A DNA stretch of 64,000 nt from Sphingomonadaceae bacterium (GTDB lineage Bacteria; Pseudomonadota; Alphaproteobacteria; Sphingomonadales; Sphingomonadaceae): the NCBI GenBank assembly GCA_947451145.1, contig CANFXW010000005.1, positions 66,230 to 130,229 of the forward strand, in the 5' to 3' direction. The notes under the pieces were generated by a model, which saw nothing but the letters and a program-made list of their open reading frames with translations, was not told the DNA's origin and ran no database searches. The number at the start of each line of letters is the position of its first letter. Positions within the stretch are counted from its first letter, which is position 1. Made by a program: the position numbers and the translations under genes. This document shows, one piece after another, positions 35,187 through 55,410 of the stretch.

Positions 35187-35229
35187 CCTTGCATGTTGCC
35201 CTGCATGGCCTCTTCGCAGGGGCTGGGAT

Positions 35230-36369: not shown

Positions 36370-36448
36370 TCATCAGCGAAAAAGTTTAGTGTGATTAAGA
36401 ACAATGCCGCCTGTTTGAGAGCTGGTTTGAGAAGGAGATCGACGGAAC

Positions 36449-38875: not shown

Positions 38876-39049
38876 GCCTACACAGAAGTTATTCATTCGT
38901 GAACCTCACACTGGGGCTCGAAAGCGCGCGATGCGCTTGCGAGCGCTGAGTTTGGAGGCAGAGCCTTGCCGGGAGCGGGCGAACCGCCCGGGTTTAGAGA
39001 GAGTGTCCGGGCGTGATCCGCCCTTTCTGCTCTCCCGGAGATCCCACCA

Positions 39050-42000
39050 ATGGCCCATACTCTAACGGACGCAGCGCTTGGCGCTGCGCCGCGCGCATCG
39101 AATTGCTCATTTGATGATCGTTCGCGTGCGCTGCTGACCGCAGCAACCTCGCTCATAGCCCTGCTCGAAACCGGGCAATGTGTTGAATCCGCCTGTTTGC
39201 GGGATGCAATGACGACAGCCTTTGGCGGCACCGATGCTGAAGGCGCATGGGATTGGAAGAGCGCCTACGATGCCTGTGAGGTTGCACAGATCCTGTTTCT
39301 GCGCCGCTTTGGCCCGGCAATCTTGTCTCGCAGTGGCTCCAGATCTCGCTCCCTTGCGCTGATTGAGCGGGTATCGGCTCTCATACCGACCCACACCCGG
39401 CGCTCTGAAACCAGCCAGGCCTTGCAACAATATTCGACGCCAGCGGGTCTATCGTTCGTGGCCGTTGTCGCTGCTTCGATTGGCGTTGGCGAAACTGTGC
39501 TCGAACCTTCTGCTGGCACAGGCATGTTGGCGATTCAGGCCGAACTGGCCGGTGCACAGCTCGTGCTGAATGAACTCGCTGAAGGCCGGGCAGCGCTGCT
39601 GTCGCACTTGTTCTCGGGCGTGGCTGTCAGCAGACATGACGCCGCGTCGATTGATGATCGTTTGCCCATTTCGGCACGCCCGAGCGTCATCCTGATGAAC
39701 CCGCCATTTTCGGCCGTCGCGCATGTTGAGCGGACGATGAAGGACGCCGCGCTTCGCCACCTCGCTTCCGCGCTGGCCCGGCTCGAGAATGGGGGCCGGC
39801 TGGTGGTCATTACCGGCGCTGGCTGTGCTCCTGATGCTCCAGCATGGCGCGATGCTTTCATCCGGTTGCAGGGGACCGGACGTGTGGTCTTCACCGCCGC
39901 CATCGACGGCAAGGTCTATCGCAAGCACGGCACGACGATCGACACGCGATTGACGGTGATCGACAAGTTGCCCGCCTCCGATCCCACGACTTTCGTTCCG
40001 AGTGCAGGGACTGCTTCTGATACCGCGACCTTGCTCAAATGGGTCGAAGCGCAGGTGCCGCCGCGCGGACCGATCGCCCCAATGCCCGGTGCAGGACTGC
40101 ATTGCGCTTCTTCGCCGTCGCCCGCGAGCCGCGCGGTTGCTCGGACTGCGCCGATCAATCCCATGGTCGATGCCGATGCGCCTGAACTCACCTATTCGAC
40201 TGCTGTCTGGGCTCCGCCTGAGGGGCAACTCGGGGACAGCATCTACGAACGATATGGACTTCAATCGGTCGTCATTCCCGGCGCATTGCCACACCCGACG
40301 CCGCTGGTTCAATCCGCGTCGATGGCCTCGGTCGCGCCGCCGAAACCCGCCTATTTCCCGCACTTGCCCGAGCACTTGTTGGCTAATGGCGTGTTGTCCG
40401 ACGCGCAGCTGGAATCCGTAATCTACGCTGGCGAGGCACATTCCGGGCATCTGGCAGGGTCCTGGACCGTTGACGAGACATGGGATCTCGTCTCGGCGGC
40501 GGCTGAAGTAAGCGATGCTGCCGTCCGCTTTCGCCGCGGCTGGTTTCTGGGTGACGGCACGGGCGCAGGCAAAGGGCGTCAGGTCGCAGGCATCATTCTC
40601 GACAACTGGCTCAAAGGCCGCCGCCGTTCGCTCTGGGTTTCGGTATCGGACCGCCTGCTTGAGGATGCTCAGCGCGACTGGTCGGCTTTGGGGCAGGAAC
40701 GACTGCTGGTGACACCCTTGTCGCGCTTCCGTCAGGGCACGCCCATCAAGCTGGCGGAAGGCATCTTGTTCACGACCTATGCGACCCTGCGTTCGCAGGA
40801 GCGGGGCGGTAAAGCGAGCCGGGTCCAGCAGATCGTCGAATGGCTTGGCCGTGACTTTGACGGTGTCATCTTCTTTGACGAGGCGCACGCCATGGCCAAT
40901 GCCGCAGGCGGCAAGGGCGCGCGCGGCGATGTTTCAGCCTCGCAGCAGGGACGGGCGGGCCTGCGGCTGCAACATGCTCTGCCCAATGCCCGCATCGTCT
41001 ATGTCTCGGCCACCGGTGCCACGACGGTGCAGAACCTCGCCTACGCCCAGCGGCTCGGCCTGTGGGGCGGCGAAGACTTTCCTTTCGCCTCACGCGCCGA
41101 CTTCGTGGCCGCGATTGAGGATGGCGGCGTCGCAGCTATGGAAGTGCTGGCCCGCGATCTGAAGGCGCTCGGCCTCTACGCTGCCCGTTCCTTGTCATTC
41201 GATGGCGTCGAATATGACCTGCTCGAGCACCAGCTGACCCCTGAGCAGGTGCGGATTTACGATTCCTATGCCGGAGCATTTCAGGTCATTCACGCCCATC
41301 TCGATGCAGCGCTCGAAGCATCGGGCGTCACCAGTGCATCCCATGGGACCTTGAACGCACAGGCCCGGTCGGCAGCGCGATCAGCTTTCGAAAGCGCCAA
41401 GCAGCGTTTCTTCAATCACCTGATCACCGCAATGCAGACGCCAAGCACCATTCAGGCGATGCAGCGCGATCTTGAGGCCGGTCACGCCTGTGTCGTGCAG
41501 ATCGTATCGACGGGCGAAGCGTTGCAGGAGCGCCGTCTTGCCGAAATCCCGACCGACGAATGGGATGACGTTTCCGTGGACATCACGCCACGTGAATATG
41601 TGCTCGACTATCTCGCGCACAGTTTTCCGGTGCAGCTCTATGAGCCCTTCACCGACAGCGAGGGCAATCTCGCCTCGCGGCCTGCTTTTGATGCCGACGG
41701 CAATCCCATCCTCAACCGTGAAGCCTGCCGAGCCCGTGATGCCATGCTCGAGCGGCTTGCCGCTTTGCCGCCTGTGCCCGGTGCGCTTGACCAGATTGTC
41801 CAGCATTTCGGGAGCGATGCGGTTGCCGAGGTGACCGGACGTTCCCGTCGCATAGTGCCCCGCGCCAGCAGCGATGGTTCGGTGCGCTTCGCCGTCGAAA
41901 ACCGGCCCGCATCAGCTAATATCGCTGAAACCCATGCGTTCATGGATGACAAGAAGCACATCCTTGTCTTCTCCGAGGCTGGCGGCACGGGGCGATCCTA

Positions 42001-43396
42001 TCATGCCGACCTAGGCGTGAAGAACCAGCGCCGCCGCGTCCACTACCTGCTCGAAGCAGGCTGGAAGGCCGACACCGCCATCCAGGGCTTTGGCCGCACC
42101 AACCGCACGAACCAGAAGCAGCCACCGCTGTTTCGCCCGGTATCGACCGACGTGAAGGCGCAGAAGCGCTTCATCTCGACGATCGCCCGAAGGCTCGACA
42201 GTCTCGGAGCGATCACGCGCGGCCAGCGGCAAACCGGCGGCCAGAACATGTTCAGCGCCAGCGACAATCTGGAATCCTACTATGCCCGCGATGCCCTACG
42301 CCAGCTTTACCAATTGCTGGTGCGCGGCAAGATCGATGGCTGTTCGCTAGGGCAATTCGAAACGGCCACCGGCCTGTCTCTGCTCGACAATGACGGCGGG
42401 CTCAAGGACGAGCTTCCACCCATCACGACCTTCCTCAACCGGATGCTGGCGCTCACCATTTCCATGCAGAACATCCTGTTCGAGGCCTTCGAGGGTCTGC
42501 TGACGGCCCGGGTCGAAGGCGCAATCGCCAGCGGCACCTATGAAATGGGCCTCGAAACCCTGCGCGCCGAGAGCTTCTCGGTCTCCGACCGCAAGACCAT
42601 CTACACCCATCCCGGCACCGGAGCTGTGACCCACCTCCTGACCATCGAACGCAAAGACCGGATCGAGCCGGTTGTGCTCGAGAGGGCGCTGGCCATGGCG
42701 ATGGATCGCGATGCCGAACTGGTGATCAACACTCGCTCCGGGCGCGCGGCAGTCAAATTGCGCGCGCGCAGTCTGATCGACGATGATGGCGGCATTCACC
42801 CACGCATCCGCCTCGTCCGGCCTTTGGAGGCGACCAATATCCTCGCGGAGGCGTTTGCGACCAGTCATTGGGAACCGGTGGACCGTGAGCGGTTCAGCGA
42901 AGTCTGGCAGGCCGAACTTGCCGACTTGCCGGAGTTCGAAACCTCGACCCTACACATGGTTTCAGGCCTGCTGCTGCCGATCTGGCGGCGGATCCCCAAC
43001 GAATCGACCCGCGTCTACCGCCTGCAAACCGATGCTGGCGAGCGCGTCATCGGCCGCAAGGTTTCGCCCGCTTGGGTCGCCACGGTGATTGAGCAGGACA
43101 CGGCGTCCGTCGTGCCTGCCGATGCTTGGGCGGTGCTGTGCGCCGGAGATGCCAAACTGCATCTGGCCGAAGATCAGACGCTCGCTCGCGTCCGCGCCAT
43201 GAATGACTGGCGGATCGAACTGACCGGCTTCAACGATCTTGGCATCGAGCGATTGAAGGCAATGGGCTTGATCTCCGAGATCGTCTCGTGGAAACTCAAG
43301 CTCTACATACCGACAGGGGCTGTCGGGGTTGATGTGCTCGCCAAGCTGCTGGACCGGTTTCCGATCCAGCGGATCGCGGCACGCAAAGCCGCCTGA
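39050..43396 (+). CDS. Strawberry-notch-family protein: N-terminal N6-adenine methyltransferase-like domain + P-loop/DEAH helicase
   Basis: 1448 aa. SAM motif VLEPSAGTGMLAI and motif IV NPPF at 39698-39709. FLGDGTGAGKGRQ P-loop and IFFDEAHAM. Typical backbone gene of this ICE type. Confidence 0.8.
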   Translation: MAHTLTDAALGAAPRASNCSFDDRSRALLTAATSLIALLETGQCVESACLRDAMTTAFGGTDAEGAWDWKSAYDACEVAQILFLRRFGPAILSRSGSRSRSLALIERVSALIPTHTRRSETSQALQQYSTPAGLSFVAVVAASIGVGETVLEPSAGTGMLAIQAELAGAQLVLNELAEGRAALLSHLFSGVAVSRHDAASIDDRLPISARPSVILMNPPFSAVAHVERTMKDAALRHLASALARLENGGRLVVITGAGCAPDAPAWRDAFIRLQGTGRVVFTAAIDGKVYRKHGTTIDTRLTVIDKLPASDPTTFVPSAGTASDTATLLKWVEAQVPPRGPIAPMPGAGLHCASSPSPASRAVARTAPINPMVDADAPELTYSTAVWAPPEGQLGDSIYERYGLQSVVIPGALPHPTPLVQSASMASVAPPKPAYFPHLPEHLLANGVLSDAQLESVIYAGEAHSGHLAGSWTVDETWDLVSAAAEVSDAAVRFRRGWFLGDGTGAGKGRQVAGIILDNWLKGRRRSLWVSVSDRLLEDAQRDWSALGQERLLVTPLSRFRQGTPIKLAEGILFTTYATLRSQERGGKASRVQQIVEWLGRDFDGVIFFDEAHAMANAAGGKGARGDVSASQQGRAGLRLQHALPNARIVYVSATGATTVQNLAYAQRLGLWGGEDFPFASRADFVAAIEDGGVAAMEVLARDLKALGLYAARSLSFDGVEYDLLEHQLTPEQVRIYDSYAGAFQVIHAHLDAALEASGVTSASHGTLNAQARSAARSAFESAKQRFFNHLITAMQTPSTIQAMQRDLEAGHACVVQIVSTGEALQERRLAEIPTDEWDDVSVDITPREYVLDYLAHSFPVQLYEPFTDSEGNLASRPAFDADGNPILNREACRARDAMLERLAALPPVPGALDQIVQHFGSDAVAEVTGRSRRIVPRASSDGSVRFAVENRPASANIAETHAFMDDKKHILVFSEAGGTGRSYHADLGVKNQRRRVHYLLEAGWKADTAIQGFGRTNRTNQKQPPLFRPVSTDVKAQKRFISTIARRLDSLGAITRGQRQTGGQNMFSASDNLESYYARDALRQLYQLLVRGKIDGCSLGQFETATGLSLLDNDGGLKDELPPITTFLNRMLALTISMQNILFEAFEGLLTARVEGAIASGTYEMGLETLRAESFSVSDRKTIYTHPGTGAVTHLLTIERKDRIEPVVLERALAMAMDRDAELVINTRSGRAAVKLRARSLIDDDGGIHPRIRLVRPLEATNILAEAFATSHWEPVDRERFSEVWQAELADLPEFETSTLHMVSGLLLPIWRRIPNESTRVYRLQTDAGERVIGRKVSPAWVATVIEQDTASVVPADAWAVLCAGDAKLHLAEDQTLARVRAMNDWRIELTGFNDLGIERLKAMGLISEIVSWKLKLYIPTGAVGVDVLAKLLDRFPIQRIAARKAA

Positions 43397-43407
43397 AGGA
43401 GCCCCGA

Positions 43408-44451
43408 ATGGACAGTCCCGCCACCGATATCGCCCGCCGCCTTGCCGCCTCAGCCGAGGCGGTCTGCCGCCGTTACCTGTCCAATGGTCGCCGAGAAGGC
43501 TGCTACTGGCTGGTCGGCGATGTTCACAATTCGCCGGGTCGCAGTCTCTACGTCCGATTGTCAGCAACAGCCGAAAGCCGGGGAGGCGCGGGCAAATGGA
43601 CAGACGCGCAAAGCGGCGACCATGGTGATCTTCTCGACATTATCGCCGCGAGTTGCTCCCATCGGACCATGCGCGAGACGCTCGACGAAGCCCGCCAATT
43701 CCTGAGCCTGCCGCCGCCTGATGAGTCCAAACTCCGAAACCCGACCATATGCAAAGCGCCGACCGGCACACCAGAAGCGGCCCGGCGCCTATGGGCCGCC
43801 TCAAAGCCGATCACGAACAGCATCGCAGCGCGTTATCTTGGTCGCCGGTCGATCATCGATCTTTCCGGCATTGATCAACTGCGTTTCCATCCGCGCTGTT
43901 ACTATCGGCCTGCTGAAGATGATGTCCCTGGTGTGCGGGAGGCATGGCCCGCAATGATCGCTGCAGTCACCGACAATGAGGGCACTATCACGGGGGTTCA
44001 TCGCACTTGGCTTGATCCACAATCCTACGACAAAGCGGCTGTCGCATATCCACGACGCGCCATGGGGCACTTGCTCGGCTCGGGCGTCCGGTTCGGCAAA
44101 GCGGACGGTGTCATGGTTGCCGGTGAAGGCCTCGAAACAATGCTGTCGCTGCGACAGGTGATGCCATCCATGGCGATGATCGCAGGGCTATCGGCCGCCC
44201 ACCTCGCTGCCATCCAGTTCCCTGCTGCGCTGCACTGCCTCTATGTCGCGCGCGATGATGATCCAGCCGGGGCAACGGCATTGTCGACCTTGACCGAGCG
44301 ATGCGAACCGTTGGGCATTGCGGTCATACCGCTTGAACCCCGGCTCGACGATTTCAACAGCGACCTTACAACCTATGGCCACGAGCAGTTGGCAGCGGCC
44401 ATTCGGGTGCAGCTCAGCGCCGCCGATGCCGTGCGGTTTCTCAAAGAGTGA
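43408..44451 (+). CDS. Toprim-domain protein (primase-like, ICE backbone)
   Basis: 347 aa. Toprim Glu in MVAGEGLETMLSL and DxD in YVARDDDPAG. Confidence 0.7.
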   Translation: MDSPATDIARRLAASAEAVCRRYLSNGRREGCYWLVGDVHNSPGRSLYVRLSATAESRGGAGKWTDAQSGDHGDLLDIIAASCSHRTMRETLDEARQFLSLPPPDESKLRNPTICKAPTGTPEAARRLWAASKPITNSIAARYLGRRSIIDLSGIDQLRFHPRCYYRPAEDDVPGVREAWPAMIAAVTDNEGTITGVHRTWLDPQSYDKAAVAYPRRAMGHLLGSGVRFGKADGVMVAGEGLETMLSLRQVMPSMAMIAGLSAAHLAAIQFPAALHCLYVARDDDPAGATALSTLTERCEPLGIAVIPLEPRLDDFNSDLTTYGHEQLAAAIRVQLSAADAVRFLKE

Positions 44452-44758
44452 GCGAAGCTGGCCGGTAAGCGGGGGATTTTCCGGGGCAGTGGGGCGCATC
44501 GCCACCTCTCCCGGTCCTTGAAGGTCGCCACGCCCTCGGCCTTCGGGAGGGGGCGACTGCGGCAGCGAACACGGGCACCGCAATGGCTGCGCTGCGGCTA
44601 TTTTCCGCCGGGGCTGCGCCCCTTTGCATCGCGAAACAAAATTGCCTTGCTTCGCCATCCTCCGCTGGCGCTCCGGCCGCGCGTTTCCGCGCGGTGCAGA
44701 CCCGTGCCCGCCGCCGCTGGTCGTCGCCACAAAGGCCGCGAGAGGCGCGGCTCAGGAC

Positions 44759-45706
44759 ATGGAGACCATCATGGCAAGCGCCCCAGATCTTCCCCTTGAA
44801 GACACCACCCCCGAACTCGGCCCAACCGCCTATCTCCTCCAGGAAATGCAGCTTTACGGCTATCGGCCCTTCCAGGACGAACCTGATGGCAGGCCGCTAC
44901 CAGATGCCCGCCTTGCCGGTGGCGCGGTCGCCGACATGTTCGACGGGCTTGTCTCAGCTTTGATCGACACCCGCATTGAACCCGATCTCGAAGACCTGCT
45001 CTGGAACCTCGTCAACATCTTCCACCGCGCCGGCGAGCGGGTCGAACGCGATATCGACGACAATGAACAGGCGCAAAAACGCCTTCAGCGCGAACAGGAT
45101 GGCAGCGAAGTGCGCTCGGTCGAACTTGAGCGCCATATTGCCGAAGGCATCTCGCTCATCGAACGCCGCGACACGATGGAATTCTTCCGTGAAGCCGCTG
45201 CCGATCAATTCCGCATCCACGCCCGCAAGGCCTGGACGCCCCGCACCGGATCCCGAGTCAACCGCAAGGCCATGACCTCAGCCATCATCGACAGCCGCGA
45301 CTTCCTCGACAAGCGTGCCAGAGAAAATGCCCGCGTGCTGCTGCCCGAAGGCACCCGTATCGCCTTCACCGGTGGCCCCGACTGCAACGATCACTCGGCG
45401 ATCTGGGATGTCCTCGACCGGGTACATGGGCGTCATGCCGACATGGTCTTGCTCCACGGCGCCACACCCACTGGTGCCGAACGCGCCGCCGCCTGCTGGG
45501 CCGACACGCGCCGCGTGCCACAAGTCGCCTTCCGGCCTGACTGGAACCGACACAAGAAGGCCGCTCCATTCAAGCGCAACGACCGTATGCTCGAAGCTCT
45601 GCCAGTAGGTCTGGTCGTATTTCCGGGCACCGGCATCCAGGACAATCTGGCTGACAAGGCGCGCAAGATGGGCATTCCGCTCTGGGACTTCCGCGAGAAG
45701 CGATGA
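44759..45706 (+). CDS. DUF2493 (SLOG-like) domain protein
   Basis: C-terminal IAFTGGPDCNDHSAIWDVLDRVHGRHADMVLLHGATPTGAERAAACWA. Start is uncertain: ATG 44759, or ATG 44771 which has GGAGA upstream. The track start 44624 looks over-extended. Confidence 0.6.
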   Translation: METIMASAPDLPLEDTTPELGPTAYLLQEMQLYGYRPFQDEPDGRPLPDARLAGGAVADMFDGLVSALIDTRIEPDLEDLLWNLVNIFHRAGERVERDIDDNEQAQKRLQREQDGSEVRSVELERHIAEGISLIERRDTMEFFREAAADQFRIHARKAWTPRTGSRVNRKAMTSAIIDSRDFLDKRARENARVLLPEGTRIAFTGGPDCNDHSAIWDVLDRVHGRHADMVLLHGATPTGAERAAACWADTRRVPQVAFRPDWNRHKKAAPFKRNDRMLEALPVGLVVFPGTGIQDNLADKARKMGIPLWDFREKR

Positions 45707-45987
45707 GACGGTTAGCTTCGTCCATTCTCACTTAGAATGGCCGGTTTAAGTTTCAGAAAGTGAGGTGGCTCCCCTCACATGTGCGAAGTGCAATGTCGGC
45801 ATACGCCGAACCCTGCCATTCGGAAGTTTGACGCTAGCTGGGCAGTCAGGGGCCCGTCCCAGTGGTTCGATTTAGACTGAAAGCATCCGCAGTTCGCTTT
45901 TCATCTTCGAAAAATTGGCGAGTCGTTTGTGAACCCATCGCGTGTATGGGTGATGTCACAGAAAGACGGCTATGACGGAAGTAACCG

Positions 45988-48900
45988 ATGGATTTTCGAC
46001 GAATCATTGATGAAGTGGCACGTCGTAAGGTCACTGGCTTCACCGGCACGATCGATGAGGACGGGGAATACTATTCTAAGATCTATGCCGGCAGCGCAAG
46101 CATGGGCGAAAGCATCGCGTCGGATTATCATGGCCGGTTCCTGATCGAGCTCATCCAGAACGCGAATGACGTGCATCCCGACGACCGATCCGACGGCGCG
46201 ATCGAGGTCGTCTTGAATTTAGCGGAGGGGCCGTTTGGTGTTCTCTACGTGGCAAACGGCGGCACGCCCTTCCGACCCAAGAACGTCGACGCGCTTTGTG
46301 ATATGGGCCTTTCCAGCAAGCCGCCAGGCGAGTCCATTGGCAACAAGGGACTGGGGTTTCGCAGCGTGCACCATGTGACGGATGTTCCGCACGTCTACTC
46401 CCGCGCATCCGACGCTAAGGCTGACCACTTCGACGGCTTCTGCTTCCGCTTCGCAGGAAGCGACGATCTGGACCGTCTATTTGCTAATCCTCGACATCGA
46501 GAGCTGGCAAAAAGCGACCTGCCGCTCTTCCATATCCCTGTCTGGGTGAGCGAACAGCCCGAGGCTGTTACCCACTTCGCGAGGCAAGGTTACTCGAGCG
46601 TGATCGCACTGCCGCTGAGATCGGCGGACGCCGTGGCAGACGTCCGGCGCGAGTTTGCCTCCGTTCGCGAGAGCGGCGTGCCACTCCTGCTGTTCCTGTC
46701 TCGACTCGCAAGTTTGACCGTCAAGGTTCTGGGGCCTGACGGCACAGTCGAGGACAAGATCATTCTCGAACGGACGGAAGACCCTGTCGAAATCGGCGGC
46801 CAATTGCTATCGGTCGCCTACTTGGGAAGCGCGGGTAAGTACCTGATCGCCAGAAGATCGGTTCCCGAGACCGAGATGCTCAGCGCCATTCAGGATGGCA
46901 TCGAGACCAAGCAACTCCACAAGCATTGGGAAAAATGGGAGGGTGATGGCGAAGTCGCCCTGGCTGTCCGCCTTGATGAGATGGTCCCGCAAACCCGCCT
47001 CTACACCTACCTGCCAATGGGAACGCAGGCTGTTTCGCCGTTCAATGGCTTCCTCCACGGTACATTTTTTCCTAACTCGAGCAGAACCGCGGTGGACGCG
47101 TCCATAAGGTTGAACGCCCTGCTCGCTGAGACAGCGGCAGCCTTAGCTGCGGCGACCATAGCGACGCTTGTCTCCCCTGCTGCGGATGAAGCATCGCCAA
47201 GCTTGGACCACGTGTGCCGTGCTAACGCGGTTGTGGACCTGCTAGCGTGGGAGCGGGTTGACAGTTTGGCAACCGACGCACCGCTCGAAGACATCATCGT
47301 CGAACAATTGATTTCAATCCTAGGGGTCGAATGTCTCGGCGATGCTCCGATCGTGCCGACGCTTTTGCAGGATGCTCAGCTTCTCGGTTGGTCGTCTGCC
47401 ACGAAGACTCGCCACTGGACTGAAGAGGGAGAGTTCTTCGGTGCCGACGCTGCAGCTCGAAACGCGCCAAGCACGGGTGTATCGCCCATCTGGCCGGGAT
47501 TGGGCCCGCGCATCGTCCGGCTTGGAAACTTCTTGGCACGGGCAATGATCGGGTATGTCGATAGGCCCAGAGACCAAGAGCGGGTCGCCCTTGTCGTCGC
47601 TATTGCAAGGGAAATTGCCAGCGGCAAGCAATCCACCATGTCGCGTTGGTCTGGTTTCTATCGCCAACTTCCAAAATTTCTGGATCGAGCGGGCATTGGC
47701 TTAGCCGGAGCGCTCGTCCTGCTCGATGCCGACGGAAAGTTGCGAAAGGCGATGACGCCTGCTGGAGAGGTTGAGGGCAAGGCGGTCCGCCGCAAGCGTG
47801 GCACGGTCGTGGTGTCGGTGTTCTTCCCGCCGGCGCGGCGCGGGGGAGGCCAGGACGAAGATGACCTTGTCCTGCCCGCGAGCCTTGCCGACAACTTCGC
47901 CTTCCTGTCGCACGGCCTCGATTGGTATGGCGACCTTTCCGAAGCCCGCGAATACCTAGAGAAGCACAAACTTGCCTTGGAGTTCGACCGCGACGTTATC
48001 CTTGCGCAGCTCTCTCGGATCGTCCGTGCGGATGGGAGGAACGCCACGCGGGCGGCTGGTCTTCGGTTGGCATTCCAAATTTGGCGCGGGCCCCGCACCA
48101 AAGGCCGTGCTTTCAAGTTGCAGGCACAGCATCGGTTCATGGTGCCGACGGTGGATGGCGAATTCGTCGATGCCCGGGAAGCGGTGTTCTCGCGTAGTTG
48201 GCCGGACGAGACACTTGGGCCGCTCATCCATCGGTTCATCGGGAGCGCACCCACCGGCTCGGCCGACATTGACGCACTCGCAGCGCGTCGATTGGGGGAT
48301 CGAAACCACTATTGCTTCAAAGGATCGAGCGGCGAACTGTGGACAGAGTTCCTCGCCGAGCTTGGCGTCCAGAAAGGACTCCATCCCATCCGCAAGACCC
48401 CACCGGCAAGCGTTCCCGCTCGTCGACTGAAGGACTTTTCGTTCTGCGAAGATCTTGGCATTCCCGAAACAGCTGCCCAAGCATGGCGCGCCGATATCAC
48501 CGAGCATGTCCCCGATGCGTTCAAGTTGAAGTCCTCTACCGGCGGCTATATCCTGCGAGGCGAAATCCTTTGGCTTCCCGGACAGGGCGATGTCGAGCGG
48601 TTCACGCGCGATTGCCTGGAGCATTTCGCCCAGCTGATTATCGCATGGCTCGAGGCTCCGCCTGCGAAGGGCTGGGCCATCGACGTCCATCACCATCATT
48701 TCATACACGACGACGCCCGCGACTGGCCTACCCCGATCCGATCGTTCCTGCGCTCATCCGCATGGATACCCGCTGATCAGCCTTCGACGGAAGGCACGCA
48801 GCATGTGACCGTCCGGGCTCGCGAGGTATGGCGGACCGAAGACGGGGAGCGCTTTCCGCCGTTTTTGAGGCGCCCCACCATCCCGGTGATGCGTACGCTC

Positions 48901-51447
48901 GAACGCGTCACGAAGGGGCAAGTTGGTGAGCTTCTAAAGCGGACTGGGATGAGTCAGCTTTTCGCTCCGGACACCCTGGTCCAGCAAGCTGCATTCCTCG
49001 CCACCCAGTTTGGCAGCGTTGGCTTCGATCGCTACTTCGAGCGACACTTCTTGAACCTTTATCATCGCGGCTGGCACCGACTCGCCACCCGTCACACTGC
49101 GGGAAAGTTAGACACGGCGACAGCCAAGGCTCCAAGCCTGATCGTCGTGAAGGAGGGCAACGGTTTCCGCACCGCCGACCTGACCCCGGCGGGTTCGCCA
49201 GCGGTCTACGTGCGGGATACACGCGACGACACGGTCGTGAGCCTTGCGGAAGCCGCTGGGGTGAGTCTGTTCGATGCGGGTTCGGGTGATGCGGAAGCGA
49301 TCGGTCGCCTCATGGCGGCACTCTACGGCGACCGCGTCCGCCTACTTTCCGGCGTCGGCTACGAACTGATCGCGGACGGCCAAGCGCTTGGTGAGGGCGA
49401 AACCGTGCCCGTACTCTCTCTCTGCCCACGCTTGCGCTTGTTTGTCGCGGTGGCACTGGAGGCATTGAAGGGTGCGGACTACCAGCGGCTTCCAGCAGAT
49501 CGACAAGGTATCCTTGCCAAGCTCGAACGCTTGCTGATCCAACGCGCTGGCATGATCCGGTTTAAGTTCGATGGGGTCGACATCGAGGGAGACGTCGAGC
49601 ACCGCCGAGCCTTCACGGTTAAGCTGGAAGACGAGCGCACGGTCGTCGTCACGCGCGTTTCCGGTGCCTTCGACTGGCAGTCTGTCGACGACTTGCTCCC
49701 TTCGATATGTGAGGCCATCGAGCAGCAATCGCTCGAGCCCAATCTGCGCCTGCTCCTGTCGGATATCCGATATTCCGGGGCGGCAGTGGACCAAGAACCG
49801 GACCTAGAGGGGGAGATTGAGCCGCTGGCGGATCGGCTTCGCCTGGGTGCGCAGGCCCGATCTGTTGCCCGCGACACCCTAGGCGCGAGCATCGAGCGAC
49901 AATCACCTTGGCTCAAGGCGGTGCTGCATGCTGCTGGCGGGCAAGCGGCGATCGACGCCTTCGAGGAGGACGAGGCCGCCATCGTGCAGGATGTCGGCCG
50001 CCTCCGTTCATTTCTCTCGCTGTGGCTGGCACCGGCGCAAATGGACGTCGAGCGTGTCCTTGACGCGTGTAGGACTTCACTTACGATATCGGAACTTCGC
50101 GAAGCACTAGGAATGGACTTCGCAGTTCTGAACCACGCGCTCGTCGCAGTCGGAGAGGCACCTGACACATATCCGGAAGTCCATGCCGGCCAGCTCGTCC
50201 ATTTCATCCGGGACAACGACCGGGCGATTCTGGACTGTCTACGCATCACGCACGCGGGTGCGTTGGCGCGCTTTGATCCGGCCCCCGGCTACTCGGCGGC
50301 GCGCGACGCGCTGTATGAACTCAAATCCGATCCTGCCTGGCTCATGCAATTTCGCGATGTGCCGGAGCTGATTCTAGCCGCACATGTGGATGTCTGGCTG
50401 TTGTCACATCGTGCGCCAGCTCTTGCCGAGGGTGGCGCCGGGCTCGAGCCACTCAATGAAGTCCGGGATTCAAACGCGGCAATGACCCGCAAGCTCGTGG
50501 CAACGGCCACACCCCTCGTGCGCGCTTGGTGCGTCAAAAACAGCGCGACGGTTCCAGCCCCGTGGATCGATGGCGATGGCGGCTATTCCTCGATACGCAC
50601 CGTTTTGGACAAGGGCGGTGCATTCGAGTTTCAGACCCTATCTGAGACCTCCGTTATACGCTGGCTCGCGATCCTGGGGGCTTGGCCGGCAGGCATGCCG
50701 GAGAGCCTCGACCGCGATGTCCTCGGGATCGGTGACAAGGACCTGGACGCCGAACATGCAAGGGTCCGCGCCGAGGCGGATGCCAGAAAGCGCGAGGCCC
50801 GGTCGGTTTCCTTCAATGGCCGCAAGATTGACCCCGAGGAAGCGGATTGGCCGTCGGTTTGCGACGAACTGTCAGCAACATTGTCTTCGAAGCTGTTTAG
50901 CATGGCGATCGGTAGCGCCGCGAAATTGAAGCCCTCGCGAGCTAGGGACAAATCCAGATCACGCGAGGAGGACCGCAAGCAGAAGCCGCCGCCGCCACCT
51001 TCGCGAGCGCCATCCCAGAAGACCGACATGATCGGGCGGCTAGGAGAGATGGCCGTCTATCATTGGCTACGCCGCCGGCTGCCGGACCAAGACATCGATG
51101 CTGCTTGGGTGTCTGGAAATGCGCGACCGATCACGAACCGCGAGGGAAGTGATAGCTTGGGCTACGACTTCGAGATCGGATTCCGCGGGCAGCGCTGGCA
51201 GATAGAGGTAAAGGCGAGCCTTTCCGATCCCTGCGCATTCATCCTCGGCGAAACGGAAGTCAGGGCTGGGAGGGCCGCTGCTCGCCCTCGAAGCGGGACG
51301 CAATATTGGATCGCCTATGTCAGCAATATCGGAACTCCCTCCCAGGCGAGGGTGGAGATGTTGCCAAATCCGATGAGCGAGGAAGGCGAGGCCGTCCTCA
51401 ACCTACTTGGCGAAGGACTTCGCTATGGCTTCGTCCGGGTGCCCTGA
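45988..51447 (+). CDS. Giant (1819 aa) GHKL/sacsin-like ATPase with C-terminal DUF3883 (NO VEIN C-terminal, PD-(D/E)xK-like) domain
   Basis: Bergerat N-box FLIELIQNANDV (46147-46170), VANGGTPF, GNKGLGFRSV. C-terminus GRLGEMAVYHWL...GYDFEI...WQIEVKAS (~51027-51444), preceded by a basic/Pro-rich linker. About 1300 aa in the middle carry no motif I recognise. Confidence 0.65.
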   Translation: MDFRRIIDEVARRKVTGFTGTIDEDGEYYSKIYAGSASMGESIASDYHGRFLIELIQNANDVHPDDRSDGAIEVVLNLAEGPFGVLYVANGGTPFRPKNVDALCDMGLSSKPPGESIGNKGLGFRSVHHVTDVPHVYSRASDAKADHFDGFCFRFAGSDDLDRLFANPRHRELAKSDLPLFHIPVWVSEQPEAVTHFARQGYSSVIALPLRSADAVADVRREFASVRESGVPLLLFLSRLASLTVKVLGPDGTVEDKIILERTEDPVEIGGQLLSVAYLGSAGKYLIARRSVPETEMLSAIQDGIETKQLHKHWEKWEGDGEVALAVRLDEMVPQTRLYTYLPMGTQAVSPFNGFLHGTFFPNSSRTAVDASIRLNALLAETAAALAAATIATLVSPAADEASPSLDHVCRANAVVDLLAWERVDSLATDAPLEDIIVEQLISILGVECLGDAPIVPTLLQDAQLLGWSSATKTRHWTEEGEFFGADAAARNAPSTGVSPIWPGLGPRIVRLGNFLARAMIGYVDRPRDQERVALVVAIAREIASGKQSTMSRWSGFYRQLPKFLDRAGIGLAGALVLLDADGKLRKAMTPAGEVEGKAVRRKRGTVVVSVFFPPARRGGGQDEDDLVLPASLADNFAFLSHGLDWYGDLSEAREYLEKHKLALEFDRDVILAQLSRIVRADGRNATRAAGLRLAFQIWRGPRTKGRAFKLQAQHRFMVPTVDGEFVDAREAVFSRSWPDETLGPLIHRFIGSAPTGSADIDALAARRLGDRNHYCFKGSSGELWTEFLAELGVQKGLHPIRKTPPASVPARRLKDFSFCEDLGIPETAAQAWRADITEHVPDAFKLKSSTGGYILRGEILWLPGQGDVERFTRDCLEHFAQLIIAWLEAPPAKGWAIDVHHHHFIHDDARDWPTPIRSFLRSSAWIPADQPSTEGTQHVTVRAREVWRTEDGERFPPFLRRPTIPVMRTLERVTKGQVGELLKRTGMSQLFAPDTLVQQAAFLATQFGSVGFDRYFERHFLNLYHRGWHRLATRHTAGKLDTATAKAPSLIVVKEGNGFRTADLTPAGSPAVYVRDTRDDTVVSLAEAAGVSLFDAGSGDAEAIGRLMAALYGDRVRLLSGVGYELIADGQALGEGETVPVLSLCPRLRLFVAVALEALKGADYQRLPADRQGILAKLERLLIQRAGMIRFKFDGVDIEGDVEHRRAFTVKLEDERTVVVTRVSGAFDWQSVDDLLPSICEAIEQQSLEPNLRLLLSDIRYSGAAVDQEPDLEGEIEPLADRLRLGAQARSVARDTLGASIERQSPWLKAVLHAAGGQAAIDAFEEDEAAIVQDVGRLRSFLSLWLAPAQMDVERVLDACRTSLTISELREALGMDFAVLNHALVAVGEAPDTYPEVHAGQLVHFIRDNDRAILDCLRITHAGALARFDPAPGYSAARDALYELKSDPAWLMQFRDVPELILAAHVDVWLLSHRAPALAEGGAGLEPLNEVRDSNAAMTRKLVATATPLVRAWCVKNSATVPAPWIDGDGGYSSIRTVLDKGGAFEFQTLSETSVIRWLAILGAWPAGMPESLDRDVLGIGDKDLDAEHARVRAEADARKREARSVSFNGRKIDPEEADWPSVCDELSATLSSKLFSMAIGSAAKLKPSRARDKSRSREEDRKQKPPPPPSRAPSQKTDMIGRLGEMAVYHWLRRRLPDQDIDAAWVSGNARPITNREGSDSLGYDFEIGFRGQRWQIEVKASLSDPCAFILGETEVRAGRAAARPRSGTQYWIAYVSNIGTPSQARVEMLPNPMSEEGEAVLNLLGEGLRYGFVRVP

Positions 51448-51485
51448 AAGTGTGTCCGCCGCGACTGCGTTCAGCTGCCAACGGT

Positions 51486-52226
51486 TCAAGTTTCCAGCAA
51501 CCGCTTCTCGTAGACGGTACTGATTCCGCTACCATCCCAAACATAGCACAGATGCCGTTCCTGCCGACAATTCGACAACCGCCGGGGCCGGAACACAGCG
51601 GCACATTCGCCGCCGGGATCGCGGACGCTTTCATATACAATCCCGTCCGACCCTGCGTCGCGCAAGGTTCGCGCGGTCTGCTGCGACACGGCATAGCTGC
51701 TCGGATGATACAACGCGGGTAACGCTTCCCGCTGCCCACGGATGTCGTGAAGGCTCGCGTCGAGATCGACGGCATAAACCCGCATGTCGAGTTCCTGCGC
51801 CGGTTCGTCGGTAGCCTCAAGGAAATGCGTGCGGTGATGCCTGGTTTCGGCAATTGCGGTTGCCAGCGTTCGCCCCGCATAAAAAACGCCGTAGCTGCCG
51901 TCGGTGAAGCGGTCGCCGACCGGATTGAGATGGGTGAACGCTGCCATGATTGCCGACGTACCGGGGCCGGAGACGCGGTCCTCAGGCGGCACGAGCGAAA
52001 GCTCGCCTGCTTCATCGCGCAGGCGGTCATTGGTCATGGCTTCGATGGCATAGACCGCTTCAAGATCAGCCGGATCGGCAACCGCCTCGAACAGCGAGAT
52101 TGGCGGAAACCGGCTCGGGATGATGCGGTAGCAGGGCGTCCAGCGGACTTTCGACGTGGGAATGTCCACGGGGTCAGCCGCGCTGCCCGTCGACATACTG
52201 GCGCACGACATAGAGGTCGGCGACAT
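51486..52226 (-). CDS. RES-domain toxin (NAD+-targeting family)
   Basis: CYRIIPSRFPPISLFE..., YAGRTLATAIAETRHH, DGIVYESVR supply the R/E/S residues. The true start is probably internal (ATG 52196 or GTG 52169, the latter 4 nt after the antitoxin stop). Confidence 0.7.
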   Translation of the reverse strand: MSPTSMSCASMSTGSAADPVDIPTSKVRWTPCYRIIPSRFPPISLFEAVADPADLEAVYAIEAMTNDRLRDEAGELSLVPPEDRVSGPGTSAIMAAFTHLNPVGDRFTDGSYGVFYAGRTLATAIAETRHHRTHFLEATDEPAQELDMRVYAVDLDASLHDIRGQREALPALYHPSSYAVSQQTARTLRDAGSDGIVYESVRDPGGECAAVFRPRRLSNCRQERHLCYVWDGSGISTVYEKRLLET

Positions 52227-52590
52227 TGCCCGACATCATCCGGTCGAGCGCCGAGGCGCCGCCGAAGACTTGCGCCTTGTTGGGTTTGCGCACCCACGCA
52301 TCGGCTGTCTTCGGCAGCAGGATATGCAGGCCCTTGTAGATGCCCATGACATAGGAAATCCGCTCCAGCGCATCCTTGGGCAGCGCCGCGACCACGCCGC
52401 GCTTCCATGACTGGAAGGTCGAGCGACTCTCCAGACCGAGCAAGCGCATCTGCTCCTGCTCTTTCAGGCCCCAGGCATCGGCAATGCGGAAGAACGTCCG
52501 CAGAGCTGGCCCCGTCAGATCCTTGCGATCAAGTCCCCTTGCAGGCGCGTTGGCTGCAGTTTGGATACCCATGTCGACACATCCTTTCAT
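52174..52590 (-). CDS. Xre/MbcA/ParS-like antitoxin (DUF2384 C-terminal toxin-binding domain)
   Basis: 138 aa. C-terminal GGASALDRMMSGNVADLYVVRQYVDG. Directly upstream of the RES gene. An alternative start, ATG 52572, has a better SD (AAGGA). Confidence 0.65.
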   Translation of the reverse strand: MKGCVDMGIQTAANAPARGLDRKDLTGPALRTFFRIADAWGLKEQEQMRLLGLESRSTFQSWKRGVVAALPKDALERISYVMGIYKGLHILLPKTADAWVRKPNKAQVFGGASALDRMMSGNVADLYVVRQYVDGQRG

Positions 52591-52601
52591 GGCTTCATAT
52601 G

Positions 52602-52630
52602 CTCATATTCTGCACAAAAGTCAATATGAG
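52602..52630. promoter_or_regulatory. 8-bp inverted repeat upstream of the Xre-RES operon (candidate autoregulatory operator)
   Basis: CTCATATT (52602-52609) ... AATATGAG (52623-52630) read directly, in an AT-rich stretch just upstream of the antitoxin start. Confidence 0.35.
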
Positions 52631-53010
52631 AGCTGATATTGCACATCACGACCTGTGTAATTCAGCGAGAGCTCACTGCTGTTGCCCGTTCGCTGTCCAA
52701 GGTGACGACGCCTCTCGATCAGACATTTCCTGGGTGTGAGGGATGATTGCTGCTGCGCTCCACGCAGTGATCCGATGGGGAGGAAGCGCCCGACTTTTGG
52801 TCGATGAAAACGGAGATTGCCGAGTGACATTCGTTCTCCGGTGGCGCGAAAATCACCCCTCCTTGTCGCCTGTCTGCGGGTCTCGTCTCGCCTAGTACCG
52901 TCAACCCCGTGCGGGGTTCGCCCTTCGCTGACGCTGCGGTGACGGCGGCTCCCGGCCCCTTCTTTTGGCGCCATCGGGGATGGTCCCCGACCACCTTTAG
53001 GAGAAACGAC

Positions 53011-53331
53011 ATGGCTACCATCGCAAACCTCACCGTGAAGTCCGACGACAGCTTCGAAGGCAACCTCGCAACGCTGACCGTCTCCGCGCCGATCGCGATC
53101 ATCCCCAACAACCGCAAGACCAAGGACAGCGAACCCGACTATCGCATCGTCAGCCGCAAGAACGGTTTCGAACTGGGCGCAGGCTGGAAGCGCTTCTCGC
53201 AGAACACCGGCGCCGAATATGTCTCGGTCTCGCTCTCGGCTCCTGAATTCGGCACCATCTACGGCAACATCGCCAACGCGCCGGGCGATGATCCTTCGAA
53301 GAAGGTCATCATCTGGAACCCGCCAAGCTAA
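53011..53331 (+). CDS. DUF736-family protein (ICE/plasmid backbone)
   Basis: 106 aa from ATG 53011, preceded by AGGAGA. MATIANLTVKSDDSFEGNLATLTVSAPIAIIPN...DYRIV...GAGWKR matches my recollection of DUF736. Confidence 0.7.
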   Translation: MATIANLTVKSDDSFEGNLATLTVSAPIAIIPNNRKTKDSEPDYRIVSRKNGFELGAGWKRFSQNTGAEYVSVSLSAPEFGTIYGNIANAPGDDPSKKVIIWNPPS

Positions 53332-53450
53332 GGTGCCAGCGTCGGCCCCGCCTCCGGGCGGGGCCGAATTAACACCAGTGCAAGAAAAGCAGCATGTCCG
53401 AAATGCATGCACATTTTTCGGACAATGCCCTGGATGCGCCTCTTACTGTC

Positions 53451-53852
53451 CTACCGCCGGATATTGCGGAGAGTTGTCACCTCTTCCGGATGGCGATCAA
53501 GAATCTCAATCAAGCCGACCGCAGCTTCGCTGGGCTGCATTGTACCACGCTCATACTTTTGGAACGCTCGCCGTCCGCCTCCAATGATCCTACCCGCCTC
53601 CTCTTGGGTGAGGCCAAGCTTCTTGCGCACGGCCTTGACCCGTGCGGCATAGGCCGCTCGCAACTCGATATAGGCTTGATCTATCGTTTGAAGTTCAGCG
53701 CCCGAATGGATGGAATCGCCATCGCCTTCAGGATACCAGCCCGGCACCTCCACTTCGCGTGCCAACGAGCCAACGCTCAGCGTTTGCATCCGCGCGTCAC
53801 GCCGAAGCACATCACCGGTCTTGGGATGAATCCGAGTCTGACCCATCTTCAA
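53451..53852 (-). CDS. MqsA-like HTH (XRE-type) protein lacking the zinc-ribbon cysteines; possible ICE regulator
   Basis: 133 aa. C-terminal HTH LGLTQEEAGRIIGGGRRAFQKYERGTMQPSEA is typical of MqsA. The N-terminal half has no Cys. No partner toxin ORF fits on either side. Confidence 0.5.
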   Translation of the reverse strand: MKMGQTRIHPKTGDVLRRDARMQTLSVGSLAREVEVPGWYPEGDGDSIHSGAELQTIDQAYIELRAAYAARVKAVRKKLGLTQEEAGRIIGGGRRAFQKYERGTMQPSEAAVGLIEILDRHPEEVTTLRNIRR

Positions 53853-53950
53853 ACCTCCTTGCCCGATGTCGATCGAAGATCGTTCAGCATCTCACCTGCA
53901 AACCCCAGCGCGAGAAGTTCTCTCTGGCTTCCGCCAATACACCTTCAAGG

Positions 53951-55231
53951 TTAATTTTCAACTGCCGCCGTTTGTCTGACCGGGCGCAACGATGCAGCGC
54001 CTTCGGCAAGCAGGCGGGCGATTTCGTCCGACGTTTTGCGCACCGCTAGCTTCAGAGCTTCATCGATATGGATGTAGTCCTGCGTCACGTTCTGCGAAGC
54101 ATGCCCGAGCATGGCCCGTATCGTCAGTTCCGTGAATCCGAGTTCGCCCGCGATGCTGCCGAAAGTGTGGCGAAGGGTATGAAGTGTGGCGCCCTCAATT
54201 CCCGCCCACTGGCAAACTCTCCGGAAACAGGCTGGTGCAGCCTGGTATGCGCCAGCGCCCGTCATTGACGGGAACACGTAGGGGTTACCAACGATCTCAG
54301 GTTGAGCGAGCACGACCTTCAGTGCTTCTGGGCCGATCGAGCGGACCTGAGCATCGGTTTTGGTATCCGGGAAGGAGACAAACCCGCCCTCCGCATGCAC
54401 CCAGGCGCGCTTCATCGACTGCGCCTCTTCCCGTCTGTATCCTGTCAGCGCAAGTGTCCGTACCACTGCAAGTGCTGTCGGATTTTCGCCATTACGTTCG
54501 GCATAGGCGATCGCTTTACCGAACGCCACGAGTTCGGCAGTGCTGAGCCGTCTCGTCTTCTTGTTGATTGCGAGTTTCTTGGCTCCTCTGGTTGGGTGCT
54601 CCGCAATCAGCCCCTTGTGCTTGGCATGACCCAAAATGGCTTGCAGCGACCCGAGGCATCGCGACGCGACGCCAGGTCCGCCAGCGGGCCGACCGCCACG
54701 GCCTTTACCTCTAGCCTTGGCAGTTTTACCGTCCCGGACATCAGCCTGCATCTGCTCGACATCCGCGATCGTCAGCCTTTTCGCCATGCGATGGCCAAGA
54801 ATCGGTTTGATGTGAGTGTTGATCCTGCTCTCATCCATCGCGAGCGAGGAGGCTTTGATTGGACGGTTCTTGCGGCCAAGAATGTTGCCGGCGCGAGCTT
54901 CAACCAGATACCAGTCACAGATCTCGGCGACGGTCATGCCACTGCGGGCCTGATGAATTGCCTCTGCTGGATCCTGACCACCAGCAACTTCGCCAAGCTT
55001 GATCTTCGCCAGATCCCGAGCTTGCTCCGTCGTGATGACACCATAGCGGCCGAGATTGATGCGCCGCTTGATCCCTTCGATGTTGCGGTACTGAACGATG
55101 AAGGTCTTGAGCCCCGACGGAAGCGCCCGCAAGCCGAAACCCCGAATCTCGCTGTCCCACAGGACGGCCTGTTTATCTTTAGGCGGCGCGAATGCGTCTA
55201 CATTGCGCTTGTTCAACTTCGCTGTCGGCAT
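53951..55231 (-). CDS. int: Tyrosine recombinase / integrase (P4-like, DUF4102 arm-binding N-domain)
   Basis: Start trimmed to ATG 55231 (MPTAKLNKRNVDAF...), preceded by GGAGGG. WDSEIRGFGLR N-domain. C-terminal HTLRHTFGS...LGH...Y catalytic signature. Adjacent to the tRNA-derived att site. Confidence 0.85.
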   Translation of the reverse strand: MPTAKLNKRNVDAFAPPKDKQAVLWDSEIRGFGLRALPSGLKTFIVQYRNIEGIKRRINLGRYGVITTEQARDLAKIKLGEVAGGQDPAEAIHQARSGMTVAEICDWYLVEARAGNILGRKNRPIKASSLAMDESRINTHIKPILGHRMAKRLTIADVEQMQADVRDGKTAKARGKGRGGRPAGGPGVASRCLGSLQAILGHAKHKGLIAEHPTRGAKKLAINKKTRRLSTAELVAFGKAIAYAERNGENPTALAVVRTLALTGYRREEAQSMKRAWVHAEGGFVSFPDTKTDAQVRSIGPEALKVVLAQPEIVGNPYVFPSMTGAGAYQAAPACFRRVCQWAGIEGATLHTLRHTFGSIAGELGFTELTIRAMLGHASQNVTQDYIHIDEALKLAVRKTSDEIARLLAEGAASLRPVRQTAAVEN

Positions 55232-55247
55232 ATTTGACCCTCCATTT

Positions 55248-55292
55248 GGAGACAAAGATTTCAGGGGGGTGCTTTGTCTCCACTTTGTCTCC
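55248..55292. repeat. Three copies of a 10-bp motif upstream of int (one inverted, two tandem direct)
   Basis: GGAGACAAAG (55248-55257), then CTTTGTCTCC at 55272-55281 and 55283-55292, read directly. TGGGAAA(A)GT is also duplicated at 55381-55400. Candidate arm-type or regulator binding sites. Confidence 0.5.
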
Positions 55293-55410
55293 AGATTTAA
55301 GCGTTTCGAGGGTATTATGGGCGGAGGCAATCGTAAACAGAAACATCATAAATATATGATGTAGCGTAGATAATCGTACTTGGGAAAGTTTGGGAAAAGT
55401 GGCCGAAATA

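Follow-up and report, generated by a model that had tools for sequence, protein, structure and literature searches.

The 64,000-nt window analysed here (contig CANFXW010000005.1 of a Sphingomonadaceae bacterium) is an integrative conjugative element (ICE) stretch of a probable Sphingobium host that carries, at 45988..51447 (+), a gene for an 1819-aa protein. We identify this gene as tmtA, encoding TmtA, the sole protein of the Tiamat anti-phage system, and place it in the long (~1750-1900 aa), mainly alphaproteobacterial clade PDLC03971, with a probability of about 0.8 for this reading as a whole. The kind is already known and catalogued, and this instance of it is ordinary.

The identification is carried by the PADLOC TmtA model PDLC03971, which matches the window protein from end to end (E = 0, 1578.9 bits, aa 3-1817 against profile positions 13-1780 of 1782). 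Of the other PADLOC TmtA models (the set being PDLC03964-03972), eight match the N-terminal part of the protein, five of them over a module of ~400 aa and three partially. Tiamat was described as a single-gene system consisting of TmtA and annotated as 'Hsp90, DUF3684, DUF3883' (Millman et al. 2022, Table S2, preprint 10.1101/2022.05.11.491447); it was found via defence-island enrichment, one member protects from phage, and the TmtA of Bacillus cereus FORC_005 (1590 aa) is marked as verified in the same table. Table S20 of that study lists further members in Acetobacter orleanensis, Acidiphilium, Afipia, Bradyrhizobium japonicum and Burkholderia plantarii ATCC 43733. Since the last of these strains carries, on its plasmid bpln_1p, a full-length homologue 37.8% identical to the window protein, the window clade already lies inside the published Tiamat family. 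An earlier annotation by a model that saw the letters of this DNA and its open reading frames (ORFs), hereafter the original prediction, stated that it knew of no system named from experiments in which these domains are so arranged. This was wrong, given Tiamat itself and a dedicated PADLOC model that covers the protein from end to end. The novelty that it implied does not hold either. VcSduA is a second tested single-protein system that combines a GHKL ATPase with a PD-(D/E)xK nuclease (PMC12137116).

The ORF listing and the translation bear out the predicted reading frame: tmtA is the sole long ORF at its position, begins with ATG, is uninterrupted and has no in-frame start farther upstream. 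All the motifs quoted in the original prediction are present, namely ELIQNANDV (aa 54-62, with E54 at nt 46147), ANGGTPF (aa 89-95) and GNKGLGFRS (aa 118-126) in the N-terminal part, and GEMAVYHWL (aa 1686-1694), GYDFEI (aa 1725-1730) and IEVKAS (aa 1739-1744) near the C-terminus. When the window was compared by blastn with the Acetobacter fabarum locus (L001), a single 5557-bp match of 82.7% identity was obtained, with limits at exactly 45915 and 51469 of the window. Because the A. fabarum copy has in common only the gene, 73 bp upstream and 22 bp downstream, tmtA moves as a self-contained one-gene cassette (45915..51469, +); the flanks of the A. fabarum gene are unrelated to the window and hold HEPN_Apea and a serine recombinase. 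The promoter and the ribosome-binding site of tmtA should lie inside these 73 bp. A GGAAG sequence is located 9 nt 5' of the ATG, a sigma-70 consensus was not found in the 73 bp upstream, and searches near tmtA for a sigma-70-type promoter, an intrinsic terminator or a tRNA gene found none. With the Acetobacter copy (84% identical) as the reference, the ratio of non-synonymous to synonymous substitution rates (dN/dS) is 0.125 for the gene as a whole. It falls to 0.065 in the GHKL domain and to 0.018, the lowest value in the gene, in the nuclease, and it ranges from 0.09 to 0.25 in the middle region, being highest (0.22-0.25) in aa 401-640 and 1421-1650. Purifying selection thus acts on tmtA over its entire length.

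The N-terminus of the protein had been predicted to hold the Bergerat fold, and the profile searches support this. A GHKL (Bergerat-fold) ATPase domain of the sacsin/Hsp90 type occupies aa 46-235 (46123..46692, +), as judged from Pfam, NCBIfam, a PDB profile search and Foldseek. Two models match above their curated cut-offs, Pfam SACS (PF25794) at aa 45-139 (34.4 bits, cut-off 32.8) and NCBIfam P_loop_sacsin (NF047352, 'sacsin N-terminal ATP-binding-like') at aa 50-137 (72.8 bits, cut-off 50). The ATPase motifs are an N-box with E54, N58 and D61, a G1 box N90-G-G92 and a G2 box with the ATP lid, G118-N-K-G-L-G123-F; their residues are invariant in both homologue sets in which we judged the conservation of catalytic residues (32 and 55 sequences). 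In the PDB profile search, the best matches of the ATPase were the sacsin SR1 structures 5v44-5v47 (E ~1e-8), followed by TRAP1. For structure prediction, AlphaFold2 models were made of two overlapping pieces from an input alignment of 55 sequences; the piece covering aa 1-1000 had a predicted local distance difference test score (pLDDT) of 86.9 and a predicted template modelling score (pTM) of 0.70, and the piece covering aa 860-1819 had a pLDDT of 86.4 and a pTM of 0.45. In a Foldseek search with the first of these, full-length Hsp90 (E = 5e-7) and sacsin SR1 (5e-6) were matched, as were SMCHD1, MORC2, MLH1/MutL and Topo VI-B. The ATP lid (aa 112-122) has a low pLDDT, which fits a mobile lid. 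AlphaFold2 and Foldseek further place a beta-rich 'transducer' domain, similar to the Hsp90 middle domain and the S5 fold, at aa 236-400 (46693..47187, +), and Foldseek aligns the whole module with constructs of Hsp90/GRP94 that comprise the N-terminal and middle domains, with MORC2 and with the N-terminal 40-kDa fragments of MutL. Two arginines, R262 and R366, are invariant among the homologues and are candidates for the catalytic Arg. This ~400-aa GHKL and transducer module is common to all TmtA clades, the other PADLOC TmtA models matching aa ~9-396 only.

At the other end of the protein, the DUF3883 domain claimed in the original prediction was likewise recovered. Pfam, residue conservation and Foldseek together define a DUF3883/NOV_C nuclease domain of the PD-(D/E)xK type at aa 1681-1819 (51028..51444, +), with the Pfam model NOV_C (PF13020, formerly DUF3883) matching aa 1690-1785 above its curated cut-off (25.7 bits, cut-off 22.1). 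The E...D...ExK set is intact: the predicted catalytic residues E1687 and D1727-x12-E1740-x-K1742 are invariant in both homologue sets. In the fold search, the domain was matched only by Hjc/RecU Holliday-junction resolvases, HincII and MGME1, with a probability of up to 0.93 but E-values of ~0.7-3. DUF3883 has been placed in the PD-(D/E)xK superfamily (Steczkiewicz 2012, PMC3424549), and Anantharaman et al. (2013) named it as a novel restriction endonuclease domain; in the modification-dependent restriction enzyme YenY4I, it serves as the active catalytic endonuclease domain (PMC6765204). The nuclease domain is tethered to the rest of TmtA by a predicted flexible linker rich in Lys, Arg and Pro (aa 1651-1680, 50938..51027, +), in which the pLDDT falls below 50 at aa ~1652-1670 (model residues 793-811) and in which conservation across the alignment is at its lowest (0.37 for this block). 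The same two end domains were seen in the 680-aa protein P0152 (79 member sequences), which has a sacsin-type GHKL (PF25794) and NOV_C (PF13020) without the long middle, so that the ATPase-nuclease pair also occurs in a minimal form.

Between these domains lies a middle region (aa 401-1650, 47188..50937, +) that AlphaFold2, phmmer and profile searches define as family-specific. The original prediction had described ~1300 aa without recognisable motifs, in agreement with our searches, in which no Pfam or NCBIfam model matched aa 140-1689 at E <= 1. The structure prediction that it proposed gave a folded region with a pLDDT mostly of 85-95, alpha/beta in character with several helix-plus-hairpin units up to aa ~1230 and all-alpha thereafter, and indels are very rare among the homologues. 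When the aa 860-1819 model was compared with PDB and BFVD by Foldseek, the only matches were weak ones of the PD-(D/E)xK type, confined to the last ~100 aa, so that aa 860-1650 are without a fold neighbour in these collections; this result is limited to aa 860-1650 and is uninformative for aa 401-859, as GHKL matches dominated the search with the aa 1-1000 model. A phmmer search of 1.84 billion representatives with aa 400-1599 found 436 clusters, comprising full-length proteins (~1720-1880 aa) and shorter, apparently truncated ones. As the matches are all collinear, at the corresponding position, the middle is a family-specific module. Degenerate extra GHKL/sacsin repeats or internal duplications were rejected, since an all-against-all hhalign comparison of nine sub-profiles gave a best pair with a probability of only 6.5%. 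Within the region, a conserved Arg-rich stretch at aa ~594-606 (nt ~47767-47805; consensus RRRRR, KAVRRKRG in the window) lies in a low-confidence disordered loop and could be a nucleic-acid-binding element.

Several observations weigh against the Tiamat reading or against carrying what is known of Tiamat over to this protein. The only verified Tiamat protein is that of B. cereus, which belongs to clade PDLC03964, whereas the window protein is in the separate clade PDLC03971; an Enterobacter homologue (1429 aa) is marked 'x' in Table S2, beside the 'v' of the verified gene. Pfam DUF3684, part of the published description, has no match in the window protein at E <= 1 in the copy of Pfam that was searched. 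The usual Asp of the G1 box is replaced by Asn (N90), as in sacsin, and the fold matches of the nuclease domain are individually not significant (E ~0.7-3). In BLASTP comparisons with the B. cereus fragment described below and a full-length PDLC03964-type protein from a Hymenobacter plasmid, the likeness to clade PDLC03964 was limited to aa ~46-390 (26-38% identity) and, weakly, to DUF3883. The middle taken alone is collinear with that of the verified clade (window aa ~654-1245), with a marginal hhalign score (probability 48%, E = 1.8e-4). Finally, reviews from 2025-2026 list the mechanism of Tiamat as unknown.

The relationship to the verified clade is nevertheless traceable. The verified B. 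cereus TmtA was compared by its first 399 aa, and four plasmid-borne members represented its clade. The B. cereus fragment scores 462 bits on PDLC03964 versus 99 bits on PDLC03971, and it is matched by the window protein in BLASTP with an E-value of 5e-10. When 32 members of the window clade were aligned by hhalign with the four PDLC03964-type proteins, a probability of 99.7% (E = 1.7e-25) was obtained over 981 columns (query 62-1272); no counterpart of the all-helical aa ~1250-1650 was detectable in the verified clade by this method. On these alignments, the N-terminal ~400 aa and the nuclease domain are common to the window protein and the verified clade, and part of the middle probably is as well. 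The two have in common a single gene, the order of GHKL and transducer, long middle and C-terminal DUF3883, and a setting of defence islands and mobile elements; they differ in length, the window clade measuring ~1820-1900 aa versus ~1400-1590 aa for the verified clade.

We then considered the genomic company of the family in 10 chromosomal and 2 plasmid contexts, all of full-length homologues. The neighbours differ every time, and none of the 12 contexts holds a conserved partner gene, which bears out the view of the original prediction that the gene stands alone, the Acetobacter locus sharing only the gene and its short flanks. Defence and/or mobile-element genes are present in all ten chromosomal contexts. 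The defence genes include type I, II and III restriction-modification (R-M) systems, Mrr/AspBHI/EcoRII-type enzymes, AbiEi/Eii, BrxL, HEPN_Apea, a KAP NTPase, a stand-alone NOV_C protein and HEC-07, and the mobile-element genes encode serine recombinases, integrases and transposases or belong to insertion sequences. Eight full-length copies are located on plasmids of Rhizobium, Sphingomonas/Sphingobium, Rhizorhabdus and Burkholderia. Tiamat has been reported to be concentrated in a defence hotspot of Pseudomonas genomic islands (PMC12629846). The predicted role in defence is thus supported by the membership in Tiamat together with the defence or mobile neighbours in every chromosomal context. 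The more specific term 'R-M-like' is not, as no cognate methyltransferase travels with tmtA: none adjoins it in the window, and none is conserved beside its homologues. Because a linked methyltransferase is absent, we rejected the reading as an R-M system; the type III-like R-M genes at 16.5-23.1 kb of the window are a separate unit.

Other recurring neighbours were seen in some of the loci. In four loci that represent two TmtA clades (L004 752-4060, L006 6663-9941, L013 5941-9210 and L017 3577-6849), the gene for a protein of ~1090 aa lies a short way upstream of tmtA; it does not occur in the window. The protein combines an N-terminal nuclease of the RecB-like/RNase_H_2 kind with a C-terminal Upf1-like superfamily 1 helicase, with partial matches of ~150 bits to the Mokosh proteins MkoA/MkoC; its gene adjoins tmtA in two of the four loci and is one to four genes off in the rest, and a WYL/WCX regulator is near in all four. 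This nuclease-helicase could share a hotspot with tmtA, be a separate defence gene or be a functional partner. In Aureimonas and on plasmid pSWIT01 of Rhizorhabdus wittichii (L007 1-7332, L011 1-7031), a three-gene cluster lies beside tmtA and encodes an FtsK/SpoIIIE-like ATPase of ~1740-1820 aa and two proteins of ~500-700 aa whose kind was not recognised; it may be another defence or DNA-translocation module. The only match in a phage collection was MT835712.1 (11455-16548), an unannotated 20.8-kb human faecal contig labelled 'Bacteriophage sp.', which encodes a full-length relative that aligns with 97% of the window protein at 25.6% identity; this could be a Tiamat carried by a phage or prophage, or else the contig could be mislabelled.

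How TmtA would act must be argued by analogy, and published mentions of the Tiamat mechanism are of the catalogue type only. Since the reviews list this mechanism as unknown, we infer every mechanistic step. ATP binding would close and dimerise the N-terminal module, as in Hsp90, MutL, MORC and Topo VI-B; the middle region would sense a feature of the invader, either foreign DNA or a phage protein, and trigger a conformational switch; this switch would license the tethered C-terminal nuclease to cut DNA; and the cutting would destroy the invader or abort the infection. As TmtA has no methyltransferase partner, the discrimination between self and non-self must reside in the protein itself, and the middle region appears to be the best candidate for the recognition of the invader. 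That an ATP-driven GHKL switch licenses the tethered nuclease against invading DNA is likely, judging from comparable proteins. The closest tested analogue outside Tiamat is VcSduA of Vibrio cholerae (Shedu type I-D, the paraMORC3 of Iyer, Abhiman and Aravind 2008), in which defence is lost with either of two substitutions, E27A in the ATPase or K557A in the nuclease, and for which a dimer with a clamp-like middle has been modelled (PMC12137116). Like TmtA, VcSduA is a stand-alone protein with an N-terminal GHKL and S5 module, a clamp-like middle, a C-terminal PD-(D/E)xK nuclease and no conserved neighbours; unlike TmtA, it has a DUF4263 nuclease and a GHKL domain of the paraMORC type, and it is ~3-fold smaller. 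The window protein is not itself a member of MORC/paraMORC or Shedu, because none of the DUF4263, HATPase_c_3 and Shedu/SduA models in Pfam and PADLOC matches it; in addition, the MORC2 and SMCHD1 folds are weaker matches than Hsp90 and sacsin.

Two more specific accounts of the recognition step can be set against each other, and neither is probable in our view. In the first, TmtA would be a modification-dependent, type IV-like enzyme, in which the middle reads a DNA modification or an unusual structure, the GHKL module clamps or loops the DNA and DUF3883 cuts; this is a narrower version of the defence reading and compatible with it, and we regard it as rather unlikely. It would agree with the absence of a cognate methyltransferase, with the catalytic role of DUF3883 in modification-dependent YenY4I and McaZI-like enzymes (PMC6765204), with the Mrr_cat, AspBHI-like and EcoRII-C genes nearby in loci L014 and L015, and with the DNA looping by GHKL proteins that Iyer et al. 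(2008) proposed in R-M contexts. However, neither Pfam nor the fold search found a PUA, SRA, DUF3427 or other known modification reader, and DNA binding by the middle region is a supposition. The second account, of which we are equally sceptical, is that of a chaperone-type abortive-infection sensor, in which the module and the middle would recognise a structural or replication protein of a phage and release an indiscriminate, cell-killing nuclease. The ATPase specifically resembles sacsin and Hsp90, more so than MutL or MORC (the best sequence match being sacsin and the best folds Hsp90 and sacsin), sacsin has been described as an ATP-driven chaperone (preprint 10.1101/2022.10.18.512535), the nuclease is attached by a flexible linker, and aa 401-640 and 1421-1650 evolve faster than the rest, as expected of a sensor surface; against this, protein clients and toxicity are suppositions, and other GHKL and nuclease defence proteins are thought to clamp DNA (PMC12137116). 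A non-immune role of tmtA as an ICE maintenance or DNA-processing factor (MutL/MORC-like compaction, repair or recombination), possibly together with RES-Xre, is very improbable: it would suit the location of tmtA inside a 14.4-kb block that is 95.9% identical between two Sphingobium ICEs, beside a backbone-like helicase, DUF7146-Toprim and YAcAr, and the resemblance of the GHKL and S5 module to MutL, MORC and SMCHD1, but homologues without an ICE backbone occur in chromosomal defence islands and on non-conjugative plasmids, the Acetobacter copy shares the gene alone, RES-Xre is absent from all other contexts, and the family was found by defence-island enrichment and has one member that protects against phage.

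TmtA can further be compared with two eukaryotic proteins. Sacsin, the best sequence match and a near-best structural match of the ATPase (PDB 5v44-5v47, SR1/SIRPT repeats), has the same ELIQNAxDA N-box, Asn-for-Asp G1 box and G-x-G-F-x-S-V-x-H-I-T-D-x-P motif, followed by an Hsp90-middle-like domain; it differs in having three repeats, UBL, DnaJ and HEPN domains and no DUF3883, whereas TmtA has one repeat. The C-terminal domain of TmtA belongs to Pfam NOV_C, the family named after plant NO VEIN (NOV), so that the likeness to this protein claimed in the original prediction is confirmed for the C-terminal domain by the match of that model. NOV also has an N-terminal GHKL-like ATPase, and it differs in being a eukaryotic nuclear developmental factor. 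Matches of the Tiamat hidden Markov model in plant metagenomes have been found to lie on plant genomes (PMC12409356), which fits the comparison with NOV. A DUF3883 PD-(D/E)xK effector domain is also present in Hma (HmaA) and in YenY4I/McaZI, in which the motor or reader is an SNF2 helicase or a PUA/DUF3427 domain and not a GHKL ATPase. Within this comparison, a bolder proposal is that the ~1250-aa middle is a new kind of invader sensor and that TmtA is a sacsin-like, chaperone-type ATPase which recognises a phage protein or nucleoprotein and releases its nuclease, as a prokaryotic forerunner of sacsin and NO VEIN; we consider this rather unlikely.

The location of tmtA in ICE cargo, which the original prediction had proposed, agrees with the genes identified in the window: trb/virB type IV secretion genes at 5.2-14.4 kb, ArdC, a ParB-like gene and a tyrosine integrase. 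The public collection contains the exact sequence of the window protein, in a 90% cluster to which Sphingobium xenophagum WP_026149874.1 also belongs. By blastn, a 14.4-kb block (38945..53365) is common to the window and the S. xenophagum ICE (L018) at 95.9% identity; it contains a strawberry-notch-like helicase (39050-43396) followed by DUF7146-Toprim, a YAcAr (YspA/cpYpsA-related SLOG) protein of 360 aa (44624-45706, +) separated from tmtA by a 281-bp gap, tmtA itself and RES-Xre. The YAcAr gene is kept in the Sphingobium ICE block and shows no association with tmtA in other contexts. Downstream, the predicted convergent RES-Xre pair (51486..52590, -) was confirmed; the RES toxin gene (51486-52226, -; Pfam RES) lies 38 bp past the tmtA stop and is followed by the gene for an Xre-type antitoxin (52174-52590, -; Pfam Xre-like-HTH and Xre_MbcA_ParS_C). 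The pair accompanies tmtA in the Sphingobium ICE and is missing beside the Acetobacter copy and in all other homologue contexts. For this reason, a functional link between tmtA and RES-Xre was rejected, and we take the pair to be a neighbour and not a part of the system.

Two variable cargo slots flank the conserved block. In the upstream slot of the window, before the strawberry-notch-like helicase gene, there are three ORFs without a Pfam match (34272-35186, 35230-36369 and 36449-37426, all +) and a gene for a 482-aa protein (37427-38875, +) with only a weak PLD-like/ZacB-like match; these ORFs (34272-38875) are candidates for cargo or defence genes. At the corresponding place, the S. xenophagum ICE has a CBASS-type CD-NTase gene. 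In the downstream slot, L018 carries a 7.1-kb insertion before the integrase (17377-24488), with genes for a methyltransferase, TetR, an ABC efflux system and HipA-MqsA; exactly at this point, the window measures ~100 bp (53365-53463). Two ORFs with overlapping ends and without a family match (52621-53412, -, and 53394-53954, +) lie between RES-Xre and the integrase in the window, and L018 carries a DUF736 gene in the stretch matching window 52621-53954. The tyrosine integrase gene (53951-55330, -) is followed by housekeeping genes of sugar-acid metabolism. Farther upstream, the genes matched by PADLOC REase_III (16520-19867, -, 1504 bits) and MTase_III (19867-23094, -, 1107 bits) and that of a DrmD-like SNF2 helicase (23021-25897, -, 667 bits) together resemble a type III-like R-M unit supplemented by an SNF2 helicase, and hence a second defence locus on the ICE (16520-25897, -). 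Between this unit and the strawberry-notch-like helicase are ArdC, the ParB-like gene, a helix-turn-helix M78 regulator and the PLD-like gene.

For annotation, the finding is routine, as PADLOC or DefenseFinder would label the gene Tiamat. For the ICE, tmtA is one more defence gene, on an element that also carries ArdC, RES-Xre and the type III-like R-M genes with their SNF2 helicase. What remains of interest is the mechanism of Tiamat and its uncharacterised middle region, and for these the clade offers a one-gene cassette (45915-51469), predicted catalytic residues (E54/N58 and D1727/E1740/K1742), a confident structural model and a domain map. The ATPase is specifically akin to sacsin and the nuclease to NO VEIN, so that studies of TmtA could shed light on these eukaryotic proteins, both of which are poorly understood; if the middle were indeed a new kind of sensor and TmtA a forerunner of both, TmtA would provide a testable biochemical model for each of them.

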